Below, in pieces: positions 10,034 to 32,000 of a stretch of DNA of 32,000 nt; the stretch's first letter is position 1, and each line of letters begins with the position of its first letter. This DNA is from an uncultured delta proteobacterium (GTDB lineage Bacteria; Myxococcota_A; Polyangia; Polyangiales; Polyangiaceae), in NCBI GenBank assembly GCA_963850305.1, contig CAWKKR010000007.1:127522-159521 (forward strand). The letters run 5' to 3'. A program made the position numbers and the translations under genes. The notes under the pieces were generated by a model. The model worked only from the letters and a program-made list of their open reading frames with translations. It was not told the origin of the DNA and made no database searches.

Positions 10034-10294
10034 GACTGGCGTACGGGGAAGGGGGCGATCCTGTTACAGGTCGAGTCGAGACCAACCGCGCACGCAAACT
10101 CGATGTACCAGGGCGCGACCGGGAGACTCGTGCATCGGTAGGTCGGGGGTAACATGGGGGCCGGCGCATCGGTCCAGGTCGTCCCCGGATGCCCCACCGA
10201 GGAAGCGCCGGTACACCGAGACATTCATGCAAAAAGGCACGCGCGTGAGTCCCGTGGCTGGCCCCGGCCCCCGGGAGACCTTACGCTGGCGGAA

Positions 10295-11200
10295 ATGGAT
10301 GCTCAGACGGACCTGGTAGCGCCTGCGCGCCCTGCGGGTCGGACCAAGACGAAGAAGATGGGCCCGGTGGCGGTTGCGCTGGCCTTCCTGGCCGGCAAAC
10401 TGAAGTGGGCCTTCGCGGTCTTCAAGCTGGTCAAGCTGGCGACGCTCGCCAGCATGCTGCTCGCGATCGGCGTGTACGCAACGCTCTGGGGGCTCCCGTT
10501 CGCGCTCGGATTCGTGGCTCTGCTCTTCGTGCACGAGATGGGTCACGCGATCGCCATGCGCCGGGAAGGGATCCCCGCGAGCGCCCCCGTGTTCATCCCT
10601 TTCGTCGGGGCCGTCATCGCCATGCGCGGCATGCCGCGGGACGCTTGGGTGGAAGCCGTCGTGGGGATTGGTGGTCCCGTGCTCGGCACAGCGGGCGCTG
10701 CGGCCTGTCTCGTCGTTGCGTTCGTCACGGGGTCGCCGTTCTGGTTCGCGCTCGCCTCGACCGGCTTCATGTTGAACCTGTTCAACATGATCCCCGTATC
10801 GCCGCTCGACGGGGGGCGCGTCGTGGGCGTCGTCAGTCGCTGGCTCTGGGCCGTCGGATTCGTCGTCGGCATCGCCGTCTTCTTCGTGACCCGCTCGCCG
10901 CTGCTCCTGATCATCCTGCTCCTCGGCGCGCTCCAGCTCTGGAAGTCGCTCAAGGCACCGCGCACCGCGTATTACGACGTGCCTGTCATCCAGAGGGTCA
11001 CCATGGGCGGCGCCTACTTCGGCCTTCTCGCCCTGATGACGCTCGGCATGTGGGTCTCAGAAGGGCCGCTGCACGCGGTCGGCGGGAATCAGCTCATGCT
11101 AACCGAAGGGGCCACGTTGCTCTTCGGTTCCGTGCCGCTCTTTGCCGGCTGGGCGCGCCGGCTGTTTCCTGGGTTTTCTGGTGGAGCCGCGGGGAATTGA
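10295..11200 (+). CDS. Site-2 protease family (peptidase M50) integral membrane metalloprotease
   Basis: HEMGH zinc motif inside a hydrophobic segment and a second motif NLFNMIPVSPLDGG, with multiple TM segments. The track start 10154 adds an implausible leader; I prefer ATG 10295 (ATG 10358 also possible). The last 22 nt overlap the 3' end of the convergent tmRNA gene. Confidence 0.8.
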   Translation: MDAQTDLVAPARPAGRTKTKKMGPVAVALAFLAGKLKWAFAVFKLVKLATLASMLLAIGVYATLWGLPFALGFVALLFVHEMGHAIAMRREGIPASAPVFIPFVGAVIAMRGMPRDAWVEAVVGIGGPVLGTAGAAACLVVAFVTGSPFWFALASTGFMLNLFNMIPVSPLDGGRVVGVVSRWLWAVGFVVGIAVFFVTRSPLLLIILLLGALQLWKSLKAPRTAYYDVPVIQRVTMGGAYFGLLALMTLGMWVSEGPLHAVGGNQLMLTEGATLLFGSVPLFAGWARRLFPGFSGGAAGN

Positions 11201-11521
11201 ACCCCGGTCCGCGAGGCTTCCAATCGACCTTCGTTCACGTGCGTAGTCGCCGTATCCCCGGCGACCGAGTTCGCGGATTCGGCCGCGACCTATTCTCAAC
11301 TGTTTCTCGGCAGCGCTATCAGAGACGTTCTCGTGCTGCCCAGCCCTGGTGTCGCGCCCGAACGGTTACGAGGACTACCTTACCGCCGGACGGCTCAGCG
11401 GTTCTTTAGGCCGCGAGAGCGATTGCGTTGTCGTTCGCAAATAACGTGCCGGTTTTAACGTGGACCGGAGCCACTGCACGCAGATTGACCTTCAGTCCCC
11501 ACGTCGAAGCCGATCGGCCCC
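11179..11521 (-). ncRNA. ssrA: tmRNA (transfer-messenger RNA, SsrA)
   Basis: Minus-strand read starts GGGGCCGAUCGGCUUCGACGUGGGG and ends GGACCGGGGUUCAAUUCCCCGCGGCUCCACCA. The 7-bp acceptor stem GGGGCCG/CGGCUCC includes the G3:U alanine-identity pair. The T-arm is CGGGG-UUCAAUU-CCCCG, and CCA is encoded. The internal tag ORF follows UUAUUU. Confidence 0.93.
11406..11438 (-). other. tmRNA tag reading frame: ANDNAIALAA-stop
   Basis: GCG AAC GAC AAC GCA AUC GCU CUC GCG GCC UAA on the minus strand. This is a classical proteolysis tag ending in hydrophobic LAA. It is the C-terminus of spurious track ORF 11406-11591. Confidence 0.9.
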
Positions 11522-25598: not shown

Positions 25599-25627
25599 GG
25601 CGGCGGCGGCGGCGGCGGCGGCGGCGG
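25599..25627. repeat. (GGC)9 trinucleotide microsatellite
   Basis: Uninterrupted ggcggcggc... run, read directly. It lies ~46 nt upstream of the antitoxin-like start and produces the poly-Ala/poly-Gly stretches in track ORFs 25341-25724 and 25230-25676. Confidence 0.9.
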
Positions 25628-28055: not shown

Positions 28056-28496
28056 TTGAAAGGATGTCAGGTTTCAAGGGTTTCGTGTCGGTGCTCGACG
28101 CGGCGCCGTGCAAGGTCGCTTCGCGCCGTCACGGCGTGTCGAGCAACGCTCTCCGCGCTCGTGGTTGCGTTCTCGATCTACTTCGGCGGTGCCGGCATCG
28201 CGCACGCCGGAGACGCGGCCGCGCCCGCGAGCCGCGTGGTGAGCAACGAAGAGCTCGCGCTCCGGGTTTCGGATCTCGAGGCCTACGTGACCAACGGCGT
28301 TCCGAAGAAGCTCGTTTCTTCGGGGCCCGGGCACAACGCCTGGCTCATGACCTCGGCGGCGCTCGTGCTGTTCATGACGCTCCCGGGGCTCGCGCTCTTC
28401 TACGGCGGGCTCGTCCGGCGCAAGAACCTCCTGCCCGTCATGGCGCAGTGCCTGGGCTGCGCGGGCGTCATCACGATCCTCTGGTGGGCGATCGGC
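28056..28496 (+). pseudogene. amt: Ammonium transporter (Amt) N-terminal fragment
   Basis: Signal-like N-terminus (LSALVVAFSIYFGGAGIAHA) followed by NAWLMTSAALVLFMTLPGLALFYGGLVRRKNLLPVMAQCLGCAGVITILWWAIG, which is the first two Amt TM helices. Similarity and GC3 collapse right after 28496, and a convergent gene ends at 28510. No clean ATG/GTG start precedes the signal (TTG 28056 is the only in-frame candidate). Confidence 0.7.
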
Positions 28497-28509
28497 GCCG
28501 CGCGGAGAC

Positions 28510-28890
28510 CTACGCGAGCTCCTGCTCGACCTGCCGGCGTGCCTCTTCCGCGAAGGCTTCGGCTTCTGCCTGCTCCATCGTGGGTAGCTCCGTGCCGGAC
28601 AGGTCGAATCCCTGCCTGGCGAGGAGCTCGCGCAGGTTCTCGATGATCCCGCCGACGCGCTCGCGCTCGCGGTCGATGCGCTCGAGGTCCGCCAGCCCTT
28701 CCTCGCGCTCGGGACCCACCAGGGTACGCACCCGGACGCGCTCGCGCGCGAAGGCGCGGCACTGCTTCCGGTATTCCTCCACCAGCGCGTGCAGCCGGTC
28801 CACCTCGGGCCCCGTGCGCCGGCGCGGCCCTCGCTTCGGCCACGTCGCCCACCACGCAACGACGATCCCCGCCGCGACGATCCAGAGCAC
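28510..28890 (-). CDS. Small membrane-anchored coiled-coil protein (hypothetical)
   Basis: The C-terminal 126 codons of track ORF 28510-30045 have high GC3 and a protein-like sequence. From GTG 28890: LWIVAAGIVVAWWATW (TM), a KRGPRRR stop-transfer, then a charged helical region (VDRLHALVEEYRKQ ... IENLRELLARQG ... EEARRQVEQELA). The upstream 385 codons of that ORF are Arg/Ser/Thr-rich noise. Confidence 0.55.
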   Translation of the reverse strand: MLWIVAAGIVVAWWATWPKRGPRRRTGPEVDRLHALVEEYRKQCRAFARERVRVRTLVGPEREEGLADLERIDRERERVGGIIENLRELLARQGFDLSGTELPTMEQAEAEAFAEEARRQVEQELA

Positions 28891-29060
28891 GGGGGAAGCA
28901 TAGCATGTGCGCCGGGCCGTTCGCGGCGAGCGCCCACGATCCCCTCCGAAGCTTGAACACGGCTCTGCCAGAACGGGGTATCGCGAGCAGGCGCGCGCGG
29001 CGGGGGCTCGGGGCCGGGCAGGAGCTGTGCGAGCCTTCGCGGCACTTTTCCGCTCCGCGG

Positions 29061-29794
29061 ATGCGATGTTACTCTGACCGCGCAGTGAGGCGTCCCACAT
29101 CGTCGAGATCCCGGACCAGGCCGGGAGCCAGGTTGCCGTTGCTCGCCGTGCCTGTGGTCGCGCTCGTCGTCGCGTTCGCGTCGCGGAGCCTCGCGGACGT
29201 CGGGTATTCCACGCTAGACCTCGCAACGGTGCGGGTGTTCGCCCTCTACGGCGTGGGGACGCAGGAGGTGGAGCAGAAGAAGACCGCGCACAAGTACACG
29301 CTCGCGGTGCCCCTCGCGGCGCACAAGTCGTTCGTGCCGCTCCCGAAGGCGCTGCCGACCATCCATGTCCGGCAATCCGTCTTTGCCGTCGGCTATCCGA
29401 TGGACCCGTCGCAGAAGCGGCCCCAGTCCACCCGCGGGTCATCTCGGGCGTCTCGGAAAACGGCACGGTGAGCCTCGGGATCTCCGTGAACCCGGGCAAT
29501 TCCGGCGGGCCGCTCGTCGACGACGGCGAACGGATCCTCGGGGTCGTCGTCGCTCGCGGTGATCCGAAGCAAGGGGTGGAGGGGATTGGGTATGCCGTCC
29601 CGCTCGATCGCCCGCTCCTGGTGCTCGCGTCGGTGCTCGATCGGCACGCCCGCGCCCACGCGACCCTCGATTCGCTCGACGAAGCCGAGAAGTCGTTCGC
29701 GCGCGTGGTCGGCCACCTGGTGGAAAGCGAAGGGGTGAACGGGATGCTCGACGAGGCCGCCCGCGCCATCGAGCATCTGAAGGCGAGGTCGTGA
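29061..29794 (+). pseudogene. Trypsin-like (S1C/DegP-type) serine protease, frameshifted and lacking a recognisable His region
   Basis: Frame A (29061-29471) has a signal peptide RLPLLAVPVVALVVAFASRSLA and ...GQSVFAVGYPMD. Frame B (-1; open from ~29402 to 29794) has PRVISGVSENGTVSLGISVNPGNSGGPLVDDGERILGVVV with the catalytic-Ser motif GNSGGP. The switch lies near gcggccccag (29417-29426). The segment that should hold the GSG...TNxHV His block is too short. Confidence 0.65.
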
Positions 29795-30120
29795 CCCGGG
29801 CTTGTCACGACGCGCACTTCAGGTTGACCGGGGTGAAGAAGGACGGCCTCCGCTGCAGCGGCGTGCCGGGCGGGCCCGCCTTCGCGCCCGTCGCTCGGCT
29901 CCGGTTCTGCGACGACGAGCTGTGCCAGGTCGATCTCGTCGAAAAGTTCGAAGGCGACGACGCCACGGATCTTCTCCAGCAATACGAGGCGAGGCGAAGC
30001 GAGCTGAGCGAGAACGTCCCTCTTGGTCGGCATAGTTCGACGCAATCATCTGCGGGACGCGGGCGGCGGTCCAGCGCCCCGGTTCGTCCCCTGGCGTTGT
30101 TCGACGTCCGAGAACCGTGA
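29791..30120 (+). CDS. Small hypothetical protein, translationally coupled to the protease remnant
   Basis: The GTG start overlaps the upstream stop (GTGA 29791-29794). The first ~75 codons have very high GC3 (AHFRLTGVKKDGLRCSGVPGGPAFAPVARLRFCDDELCQVDLVEKFEGDDATDLLQQYEARRSELSE), and the tail has poor codon usage. The antisense alternative has lower GC3. Confidence 0.45.
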   Translation: MTRACHDAHFRLTGVKKDGLRCSGVPGGPAFAPVARLRFCDDELCQVDLVEKFEGDDATDLLQQYEARRSELSENVPLGRHSSTQSSAGRGRRSSAPVRPLALFDVREP

Positions 30121-30165
30121 CGAGTACGAACGAGCGGAAAACCTGCGCCCCTCGTTTTCTGTCAC

Positions 30166-30650
30166 GCGACGACCCGCCCCTCGGCCGCGAGAACCGATCC
30201 GCCCGCCGTGGTAACCGCATTCTCCGCCGCGACGACGCGTCCGTCGGCCGTGATAAGTGGATCACACAGCGCGACGACGCCTCCGTCGGCGGTGAGGACA
30301 CCTCCGACGGCCGTGATAAGTGGATCATGCGCCGCGACGACGCGTCCGTCGGCCGTGATAAGTGGATCACACAGCGCGACGACGCCTCCGTCGGCGGTGA
30401 TGACGCCTCCGTCGGCCGTGATAAGTGGATCATGCGCCGTGATGACGCCTCCGTCGGCCGTGATAAGTGGATCATGCGCCGTGATGACGCCTCCGTCGGC
30501 CGTGAGGATGCGTTCTCACGGGCGCGATGATCGCTTCACGCGCCGTGAGGACAGCTCCGACGGCCGTGATAAGTGGATCATGCGCCGTGAGGACACCTCC
30601 GTCGGCCGTGAGGATGCGTTCTCATGGGCGCGATGATCGCTTCACGCGCC
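30166..30650. repeat. Mosaic of 21-bp-phased direct repeat modules (three families) including two 43-bp double-hairpin modules
   Basis: Segmented by eye into 21 consecutive 21-nt units plus two 43-nt units. Family A is gtgataagtggatca(tgcgcc/cacagc), x6 (starts 30250, 30313, 30355, 30418, 30460, 30566). Family B is g(t/c)ga(t/c/g)ga(c/t)(g/a)c(c/g)tccg(t/a)cggc(c/g), with many copies. Family C is gtgaggatgcgttctca(c/t)gggcgcgatgatcgcttcacgcgcc, x2 (30502-30544, 30608-30650). Higher-order duplications are present (30229-30291 = 30334-30396). The leftmost units (30166-30228) are degenerate. Confidence 0.9.
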
Positions 30651-30910
30651 GTGCGAAGGCGTCCGTCGGCCGTGCGAAGGCGTCCGTCGGCCGTGCGAAG
30701 GCGTCCGTCGGCCGTGCGAAGGCGTCCGTCGGCCGTGCGAAGGCGTCCGTCGGCCGTGCGAAGGCGTCCGTCGGCCGTGCGAAGGCGTCCGTCGGCCGTG
30801 CGAAGGCGTCCGTCGGCCGTGCGAAGGCGTCCGTCGGCCGTGCGAAGGCGTCCGTCGGCCGTGCGAAGGCGTCCGTCGGCCGTGCGAAGGCGTCCGTCGG
30901 CCGTGCGAAG
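30651..30910. repeat. Perfect tandem array: 12 identical copies of gtgcgaaggcgtccgtcggcc (21 bp) plus an 8-nt partial copy
   Basis: Read directly: no mismatch in 252 nt (30651-30902), then gtgcgaag. No spacers. All six frames are stop-free, which generates the heptad ORFs (RAKASVG)n, (VRRRPSA)n and (LRTADGR)n in the track. Confidence 0.95.
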
Positions 30911-30969
30911 TTTCACGATCGTAACATTCCGGGTGGCACTCGTTTAGTCGTGCGTGTTACTAGCGCGGC

Positions 30970-32000
30970 GTGAATCGCGTCGCGGGACTTCAGGGGGGCA
31001 GCCTGATACTGGTGGCGGTGCTCGGCTTCGCGCGCGCGGTTTGGGCCCAAGATGGCGGAGCGCCGCAATCGTCCGCAAGTGCCCGGGCCGAGGCGGCTCC
31101 AGCGCCGCCGCCCGCCCCGGCACCCGTTGCAAAGGCGCCACCGCCCGTTGCTTTGCCGCCCGTTGGCTTGGCGCCCGTCGCTTTGCCGTCCGTGGCCGTC
31201 GGCGGACCGCTCGCCGCGCAGTTGCCGGAGGTCGTCGTGCATGGGAGGGCCGAAGATCTGCTGGGGGCCGCTACCAGCGCGTCGCAAGGATCGGTCGGCG
31301 AGGCGGACCTGGAAGACCTGCCGCTTCTCCGCCGCGGTGAGTTGCTCGAGAGCGTGCCGGGCATGGTCGTCACTCAGCACTCGGGTGACGGAAAGGCCAA
31401 TCAGTATTTCCTCCGCGGGTTCAATCTCGATCACGGTACCGACTTCGCCTTCTCCGTCGACGGCGTGCCCGTCAACCTGCCGAGCCACGCTCACGGTCAG
31501 GGCTACTCTGACCTGAACTTTCTCATCCCCGAGCTGGTCAGTTCCATCGACTTCAGAAAGGGGCCGTTCTATCCGGACGTCGGCGACTTTTCGGGCGCCG
31601 GCGCAGCGAACATCCGCCTCGTGAACACGCTGCCCGAGGGGATCGCGAACCTGCAGCTCGGGCAATTCGGGTATGCGCGCATGCTCGTCGCCGACAGCCC
31701 AAAGGTGGGTTCAGGGACGCTCCTCTACGCGCTCGAATACAATCACTACGACGGGCCGTGGGACGTTCCCGAGAATTCGAACCGCTATAACGGCCTGCTG
31801 CGGTACCACTGGGATTCCGGTCGCGACGAGTACAGCATCACGGGCAGTGTTTACTGGGCTCCCCAGTGGCATTCGACCGATCAGGTCGCGCTGCGTGCGG
31901 TCGACGAGAACGTGATCGGCCGCTTCGGCGCCATCGATCCGACCGACGGTGGGCGGACGGGCCGCGACGCTCTGTCGTTCGACTGGGTTCGACACGGCGA
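30970..32000 (+). CDS. TonB-dependent outer-membrane receptor (partial; continues beyond the window)
   Basis: Not in the ORF track because no stop is reached. My translation from GTG 30970 gives VNRVAGLQGGSLILVAVLGFARAVWA/QDGG (signal), a Pro/Ala-rich linker, then the plug domain: VVVHGR...SQGSVG..DLE..PLLRRGELLESVPGMVVTQHSGDGKANQYFLRGFNLDHGTDFAFSVDGVPVN. An in-frame stop at 30961-30963 bounds the start. The 250-aa minus ORF 30913-31665 is its shadow. Confidence 0.85.
   Translation, partial: MNRVAGLQGGSLILVAVLGFARAVWAQDGGAPQSSASARAEAAPAPPPAPAPVAKAPPPVALPPVGLAPVALPSVAVGGPLAAQLPEVVVHGRAEDLLGAATSASQGSVGEADLEDLPLLRRGELLESVPGMVVTQHSGDGKANQYFLRGFNLDHGTDFAFSVDGVPVNLPSHAHGQGYSDLNFLIPELVSSIDFRKGPFYPDVGDFSGAGAANIRLVNTLPEGIANLQLGQFGYARMLVADSPKVGSGTLLYALEYNHYDGPWDVPENSNRYNGLLRYHWDSGRDEYSITGSVYWAPQWHSTDQVALRAVDENVIGRFGAIDPTDGGRTGRDALSFDWVRHG

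Follow-up and report, generated by a model that had tools for sequence, protein, structure and literature searches.

Among iteron and centromere arrays, F sopC consists of 12 repeats of 43 bp, and R1 parC is of the same kind. Mycobacterium tuberculosis carries MIRU-VNTRs, which were reportedly described by Supply et al. in 1997 and 2000. The tandem repeats in the promoters of M. tuberculosis dop, lpdA and cysG vary in copy number in a high-GC bacterium (PMC12817950), and many loci used in MLVA are found in Xanthomonas, Ralstonia and Burkholderia (for example, PMC1853098). At Haemophilus influenzae hmw1A, the number of 7-bp repeats makes the promoter a 'rheostat' (PMC8262952). Helicobacter pylori FrpB4 and FecA3 are reported to be TonB-dependent nickel transporters under the control of NikR (cited in PMC11247825, PMC3177205). 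Since promoter-proximal minisatellites are documented (PMC12817950), the view that no described system has the architecture of the locus considered here, put forward in an earlier reading of its DNA letters alone (the sequence-only reading), was overstated.

We analysed a tandem array on the chromosome of an uncultured member of the Polyangia (Myxococcota). The window, by which we mean the whole stretch of 32,000 nucleotides that was analysed, has a G+C content of 62–71% and contains genes for tmRNA, SRAP, a GH63-like hydrolase, an aldose epimerase, MsrB-MsrA, an M50 peptidase, an LMF1-like protein, NDH-2, hemerythrin, an epimerase and an MBL-fold hydrolase, most of them with full-length Pfam coverage. 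The array lies towards the end of the window, among the following features.

28150–28500, + strand: N-terminal stub of an ammonium transporter gene (Pfam Ammonium_transp profile positions 1–52 of 399).
29106–30006, + strand: pseudogene of an S1C (HtrA-like) serine protease, C-terminus lost (tblastn of P0177, 549 aa; GC3 frame plot).
30168–30650, + strand: older, diverged part of the repeat tract, with a-a-b and A/B/C units (Tandem Repeats Finder, TRF; register tables).
30397–30505, + strand: perfect 42-bp (A+B) repeat in 2.6 copies, a second recent expansion (TRF, 100% matches, score 218).
30504–30546, + strand: first copy of the C unit, 43 nt, with a +1 shift of the sense frame and an ATGA stop/start overlap; ORF 30117–30530 ends and ORF 30527–30973 starts here.
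30610–30652, + strand: second copy of the C unit, one base off the first, with the second +1 frame shift; ORF 30208–30636 ends here.
30651–30910, + strand: the reported array of 12 perfect 21-bp D units and an 8-nt partial unit (TRF, shuffle control).
30911–30969, + strand: conserved pre-start region, probably the promoter with a degenerate candidate operator (aligns with the nikR-receptor intergenic regions of relatives).
30970–32000, + strand: 5′ part of a TonB-dependent receptor gene, cut by the end of the window (Pfam Plug, E = 2.5e-13).

Between 30651 and 30902 the unit GTGCGAAGGCGTCCGTCGGCC is repeated 12 times head-to-tail with zero mismatches. An 8-nt partial copy, GTGCGAAG, follows the twelfth unit and takes the array to 30910, which leaves 59 nt (30911–30969) before the GTG of the receptor at 30970. 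TRF gave 12.5 copies, 100% matches and a score of 526, and the number of chance matches expected from dinucleotide shuffles of the window was 0.01, even with 3 mismatches tolerated. These coordinates and the TRF result agree with the sequence-only reading, which had also described a CGGCCG palindrome in each unit; we saw it in all of them. CRISPR was rightly set aside there, because a CRISPR array requires unique spacers and the units here are contiguous. The 21-bp period corresponds to two helical turns and to seven codons, a length that fits protein binding or an ex-coding origin too.

The array is the 3′ tip of a tract of ~740 bp with the same 21-nt period (30168–30910). The tract comprises about 35 units, about 22 of which are older and stand besides the 12.5-copy perfect array. 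Over the tract, TRF reported a period of 21 with 29.9 copies (30276–30905) and further periods of 42, 63 and 105. The units belong to four types that share one register.

Type A: GAyGACGCsTCCGTCGGCCGT, several copies.
Type B: GATAAGTGGATCAyrCrsCGy, six copies, with the short palindrome GTGAT-N6-ATCA(C/T).
Type C: an A+B pair, diverged and one base longer, 43 nt, two copies.
Type D: GCGAAGGCGTCCGTCGGCCGT, twelve copies, perfect.

From 5′ to 3′ the order is a-a-b in degenerate form, A-B-A-A-B-A-B-A-A-B-A-B-A-C, A-B-A-C and then D twelve times, and types A and D are identical over their last 15 nt. Copy identity climbs in the same direction, the first copies being degenerate and the last perfect. 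At least three separate recent amplifications are seen, namely the block of 2.6 copies of 42 bp, a duplication of the 106-bp [A-B-A-C] segment, and the D array. Nested and graded in this way, the tract looks as expected of a minisatellite that evolves naturally and has formed higher-order repeats.

On one side of the tract lies the decayed protease pseudogene, on the other the receptor's conserved promoter region. In tblastn searches with P0177, residues 6–174 aligned to 29106–29438 in frame 3, residues 168–289 to 29429–29782 in frame 2, and residues 408–478 to 29794–30006 in frame 1. Compared with this 549-aa homolog, the pseudogene contains two frame switches, a deletion of ~58 aa that has removed the His/Asp catalytic region and a further deletion of 118 aa, and the last 71 residues are missing. 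The coding signal of the ammonium transporter stub stops at ~28500 in the GC3 frame plot. Because the other genes of the window are intact, the decay around the tract is local and does not reflect general sequencing error.

The receptor fragment encodes a signal peptide, a lineage-specific Pro/Ala-rich stretch and the Plug domain. It is most closely related to TonB-dependent receptors from uncultured Polyangia (66–87% protein identity); at the DNA level it is ~80% identical to them, with homology starting only at ~31200, inside the gene. The dN/dS ratio of the fragment was 0.09 against the relative L014, so the receptor is still under purifying selection and evidently functional. We retrieved nine relatives' loci (L014, L015, L016, L025, L026, L027, L029, L030 and L031). 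The gene for NikR lies directly upstream of the orthologous receptor in eight of them, cut by the contig start in L026; the ninth locus, L030, is without nikR. The relatives' nikR passes the NCBIfam NikR equivalog cut-off, and genes for TonB_C, ferritin and DUF2079 follow the receptor in several of these loci. As judged from sequence comparison, the window receptor is orthologous to the nikR-linked receptors. In the window itself, tblastn of three NikR proteins gave a best E value of 0.37. The position of nikR in most relatives is taken here by the repeat tract, the S1C-protease pseudogene and the ammonium-transporter stub. The larger tract, the loss of nikR and the surrounding pseudogenes are absent from the sequence-only reading. 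A derivation of the repeat from nikR or its operator was rejected, because local alignments were not significant against shuffles; the one marginal case, the nikR of L014 (5 of 100 shuffles), was not reproduced with that of L025 or L015.

The intergenic regions of the relatives share the inverted repeat CACGAT-N8-RTCGTG and the motif CGTGyTAyGAG before the start codon. The 59-nt segment of the window holds TCACGATCGTAA, the same as in L025 over 12 nt, together with GGCAC-N14-GTGTTACTAG (GGCAC-N14-GTGTTAC) in the register of the relatives, and also TACTAG. Its local-alignment scores against the nine relatives summed to 158, compared with a mean of 118.6 (sd 6.3, maximum 140) in 500 shuffle trials, and against L029 the alignment runs end to end from 30911, the first base past the array. 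Since the gap aligns with the relatives' pre-start region from that first base, the receptor promoter lies most probably in the 59-nt segment, downstream of the array. The promoter had been placed either within the array or immediately after it; the alignment speaks for the latter position and against the former. In the place of the candidate operator, the window has GCACTC...GCGTGT in register with the CACGAT-N8-RTCGTG of the relatives, and a separate CACGATCG too. In the inverted repeat, the left arm has degenerated (GCACGA has become GCACTC), which, speculatively, would fit the loss of the cognate repressor. Consensus scans of 29700–31300 found no sigma-70 consensus promoter and no intrinsic terminator. 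The weak ECF-like match AAC-N15-CGT, noted earlier in the gap, did not hold up as an ECF promoter: it is unconserved in the relatives, and the domain detected in the receptor was Plug, with no signalling-extension domain. A sigma-54 reading of TGGCAC in the gap was rejected because its GG is unconserved in the relatives.

We looked for the repeat elsewhere with a double-core pattern, TCCGTCGGCCGTG-N(8-29)-TCCGTCGGCCGTG, in 185,579 species-representative genomes, JGI metagenome contigs and viral contigs; of the source genome itself, the window was covered. The scan gave 13 matches in genomes, 8 in metagenomes and 0 in viral contigs. All 8 metagenome matches were off-register, with gaps of 9–23 nt but never of 8 or 29, and the genome match that was inspected, L011, had a gap of 29 and fell inside coding DNA; we treated all of the double-core matches as chance. 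No multi-copy array was present in the genome, metagenome or viral collections; the genomes and metagenomes yielded single matches only. A blastn search of the repeat against 72,556 plasmid records and 50,697 phage records gave no match, and none of the nine relatives' loci had a tandem array upstream of the orthologous receptor.

With the VNTRs of M. tuberculosis the array has in common a high-GC host genome, head-to-tail units some tens of bp long, an intergenic position adjoining a gene start, and near-perfect copies that imply slippage or recombination. MIRU-like features of the tract are the small ORFs across the repeats, with ends overlapping the flanking starts. However, in the M. tuberculosis promoter repeats it is the promoter itself that is duplicated, whereas the conserved promoter segment here is outside the repeat; MIRUs form a dispersed multi-locus family inside operons, whereas our unit, which follows a pseudogene, was a single-locus one in the searches; and copy-number polymorphism is documented in M. 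tuberculosis, whereas the array is known from one assembly. As at hmw1A, a tandem tract lies upstream of an outer-membrane protein gene, and copy number could in principle tune expression. In contrast to hmw1A, the repeats measure 21 bp instead of 7, the tract precedes the promoter segment and does not separate promoter from start codon, and the host is a free-living environmental myxobacterium.

The relatives' loci recall the NikR-controlled nickel transporters, with the receptor paired with nikR in eight of nine, an inverted repeat before the start, and TonB and ferritin genes downstream. The window departs from this arrangement in being without nikR, in having a degenerate inverted repeat, and in carrying the repeat tract in addition. 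We infer the nickel specificity of the receptor from gene linkage only.

The tract is probably a non-coding minisatellite of hierarchical organisation (a VNTR-type tandem repeat), with the array as its youngest block. The 21-bp units fall in the range of about 10–100 bp typical of such repeats and are highly identical in the array, and the tract appears to be non-coding, its frame being broken twice. The array has the look of an ordinary non-coding minisatellite and not of a new system. A VNTR-type element had been one of the proposals of the sequence-only reading and is the one that fits best, given the head-to-tail 21-bp units, their 100% identity and their non-coding nature; the recent expansion claimed with it is supported by the perfection of the copies. 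Because the D copies are identical, the last expansion would be very recent, or the copies would still be homogenised, so copy number would be expected to vary within the population and is probably variable.

Such a minisatellite could have arisen as follows. The loss or displacement of nikR and the decay of the neighbours would have left DNA under relaxed constraint. An ancestral 21/42-bp unit would then have gone through several rounds of amplification, by replication slippage and/or unequal RecA-dependent recombination, in a succession that would run from the older 5′ copies through the 106-bp [A-B-A-C] duplication and the 42-bp block of 2.6 copies to the 12 perfect 3′ D units. The receptor is most likely transcribed from the conserved 59-nt segment past the array. 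With the promoter downstream, the array would be outside both the core promoter and the mRNA, and a change in copy number would thus leave core-promoter spacing and the leader unaltered. Any effect on expression would be indirect, through altered sequence upstream of the −35 region. The array may modestly influence the promoter; a dedicated function of its own is unlikely. A phase-variable locus of the transcriptional type was rejected, since the array appears to lie upstream of the 59-nt segment and not between the −35 and −10 elements or in the promoter–start interval.

Other explanations read the tract as part of a gene, an RNA or a replicon. The ORF at 30527–30973 that the sequence-only reading had pointed out is present as described; it encodes (RAKASVG)n, and its TGA overlaps the receptor GTG as GTGA. 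The tract could then be, or have been, a heptad-repeat gene, (RDDASVG/RDKWIxx)n-(RAKASVG)12, coupled to the receptor through GTGA, with the +1 shifts as mutations or GGG-for-GG homopolymer errors. Indeed, the period divides by three and, one extra base per C unit aside, keeps its phase over ~35 units, and GC3 is highest in the sense frame, for the A/B as well as the D blocks (GC3 frame plot); for these two reasons an ex-coding origin keeps some room. The ORFs are also chained by ATGA and GTGA overlaps, and mycobacterial MIRUs are said (Supply et al., 1997) to have ORF-chaining overlaps too. Translation of the repeat as it stands is not supported, however: the sense frame is broken by the two +1 shifts, no homolog was found, and the core is without third-position wobble. 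An exhaustive phmmer (HMMER) search with ORF 30117–30527 against 1.84 billion cluster representatives returned unrelated low-complexity heptad repeats only, with QRDPLTL, QRDQHST and NRDDTVV types as the top matches, and the six tract ORFs concatenated (four in + frames, two in −) gave nothing at E <= 1e-5 against 5.8 billion clusters. In the 12-nt core TCCGTCGGCCGT none of the three codon positions varies, so the repeat is conserved at the DNA and not at the protein level, and the differences between units are mostly non-synonymous. The product would have neither a signal peptide nor a recognisable domain, and with the upstream neighbour a pseudogene there is no operon for coupling. Two sequencing errors exactly here are unlikely when the other genes of the window are intact. 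All six frames are open, as had been reported, but this is unremarkable, being expected for 41–54% of 21-mers of this genome's composition. We regard a coding gene as quite improbable. A structured RNA or riboswitch leader was rejected: at gathering thresholds, Rfam found in the window only the tmRNA, elsewhere, and no family in the tract, and the folds of each unit type on both strands were of no unusual stability (z-scores of −1.5 to +0.1 against shuffled sequences). The likeness to an iteron or a centromere-like site of the sopC/parC type, or to part of a mobile element, is formal only. As in F sopC and R1 parC, there are about 12 spacer-less tandem direct repeats, exactly twelve tandem copies in the case of sopC. 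In contrast to those systems, partition and replication genes are absent, the context is chromosomal with housekeeping neighbours (tmRNA, MsrAB, NDH-2 and others), the copies are perfect without belonging to a conserved family, and pseudogenes adjoin them. Pfam searches of ~40 window ORFs found no rep, par, integrase or transposase domains, in line with what had been noted before, and the plasmid, phage and viral collections held no match; the analogy drawn earlier is thus not supported, and we consider such an origin extremely improbable.

Two further explanations accept the repeat as such and concern what it does or how faithfully it was assembled. The array could be a functional cis-regulatory element, either a copy-number 'rheostat' or contingency element or a set of tandem binding sites, which took over control after the loss of nikR. 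It stops exactly where the conserved promoter region begins, in the position of an upstream activator or UP-like element, and its 21-bp period sets all copies, each with a partially palindromic core, on one face of the helix. The absence of nikR, together with the degenerate candidate operator, argues in the same direction, as does promoter control by repeat number in M. tuberculosis (PMC12817950) and at H. influenzae hmw1A (PMC8262952). However, no candidate binding protein is encoded nearby (Pfam, ~40 window ORFs), and the motif is absent from the relatives' loci and from public collections, so that there is no sign of a conserved regulon. The adjoining DNA is visibly decaying, and copy number would not touch −35/−10 spacing or the 5′-UTR. 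A regulatory role of this kind is unlikely in our view, and so is the more specific version, in which the array is a copy-number-tunable element that replaces NikR control of a metal-uptake receptor, perhaps as a phased platform to which a nucleoid protein or a regulator encoded elsewhere binds. Consensus polishing is able to homogenise tandem copies, and the repeat might be real while assembly or polishing created the count of 12 and the perfect identity. The window comes from a metagenome-type contig of more than 1 Mb, and contigs of related organisms in similar ENA assemblies have many split genes. Yet a 260-bp array is easily bridged by single long reads, the flanking genes of the window are full length, and the diverged older copies with their nested periodicities are those of natural repeat evolution. 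In addition, the one further contig of this organism, a 1.3-kb Logan contig from an independent run (ERR11594399), is 99.92% identical over 1308 bp nearby, a stretch that covers the MBL gene only and leaves the array outside. We consider an artefact of this kind very unlikely.

If the locus is a simple minisatellite, as we favour, it would be usable as a marker for typing strains, and it calls for care when high-GC metagenome genomes are assembled and annotated. The locus also shows tandem repeats colonising DNA freed from constraint after gene loss. If it were true that copy number tunes the receptor, the logic of contingency loci would reach environmental myxobacteria, beyond host-associated pathogens. 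More interesting than the array itself is the conserved nikR-receptor module and its disruption here. Polyangia keep a conserved nikR-receptor-TonB-ferritin module with CACGAT-N8-RTCGTG as its candidate operator, and the lineage of the window appears to have lost the linked regulator and kept the receptor under purifying selection. Loss of a linked regulator with the receptor kept would be a natural experiment in rewired control of metal uptake.

The S1C (HtrA-like) serine protease reading frame upstream of the repeat tract is a pseudogene, and several further genes or gene fragments and short repeats were found in the window, as follows (window coordinates).

11179-11521, minus strand: tmRNA gene, present at full length and scoring 136.6 bits against Rfam RF00023
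19639-20010, plus strand: short ORF with a partial match to Uma2, a family of putative restriction endonucleases (positions 66-160 of the 172-position profile)
25599-25627: perfect trinucleotide tract, (GGC)9.7
28150-28500, plus strand: stub of an ammonium-transporter gene, its N-terminal portion matching positions 1-52 of the 399 in the Pfam profile
28510-28900, minus strand: small ORF, convergent with the ammonium-transporter stub and adjoining it, with a good coding GC3 signal
29106-30006, plus strand: S1C serine protease pseudogene
30252-30580: palindrome GTGAT-N6-ATCA(C/T), six copies, in the B units of the older part of the tract
31141-31193, plus strand: 15-bp coding repeat CCGCCCGTTGCTTTG, 3.5 copies, in the N-terminal linker of the receptor

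Comparison of the protease pseudogene with P0177, a 549-aa homologue, revealed two frame switches, an internal deletion of ~58 aa that corresponds to the catalytic His/Asp region, a second internal deletion of ~118 aa, and loss of the C-terminus. The Uma2-like ORF, whose match is confined to the C-terminal part of the family, may be another gene fragment; the small ORF at 28510-28900 gave no family match. The tmRNA gene overlaps the stop end of an M50 peptidase ORF call (10154-11200).

Within the older tract the B-unit palindromes lie 42-106 bp apart, and each of the six contains a GATC site. In the receptor gene, CCGCCCGTTGCTTTG encodes PPVAL-like residues inside a lineage-specific, Pro/Ala-rich N-terminal linker; homology to relatives begins only at ~31200, past this repeat.

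Polyangia MAGs share a common module with the order nikR, TonB-dependent receptor, TonB_C, ferritin (minus strand) and DUF2079 (minus strand); the nikR-receptor part is conserved in relatives' loci L014, L015, L016, L025, L026, L027, L029 and L031. The contigs of L015, L025, L027 and L029 (ENA ERZ2503/2504xxxx) contain numerous split genes, including those for RNR subunits, nikR and the receptor, as is usual where indel errors of long reads have been left uncorrected; gene calls and protein lengths from these contigs are, thus, not reliable at face value.

Just before the receptor start, the nikR-linked relatives carry an inverted repeat, CACGAT-N8-RTCGTG, and a motif, CGTGyTAyGAG, which together form a candidate NikR operator and promoter; no description of this motif was found in the literature consulted. 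In one relative, L030, nikR is absent upstream of the orthologous receptor and the ATCGTGCTACGAG motif is retained (L030:3540-3620), so that either the nikR linkage was lost more than once or nikR moves.
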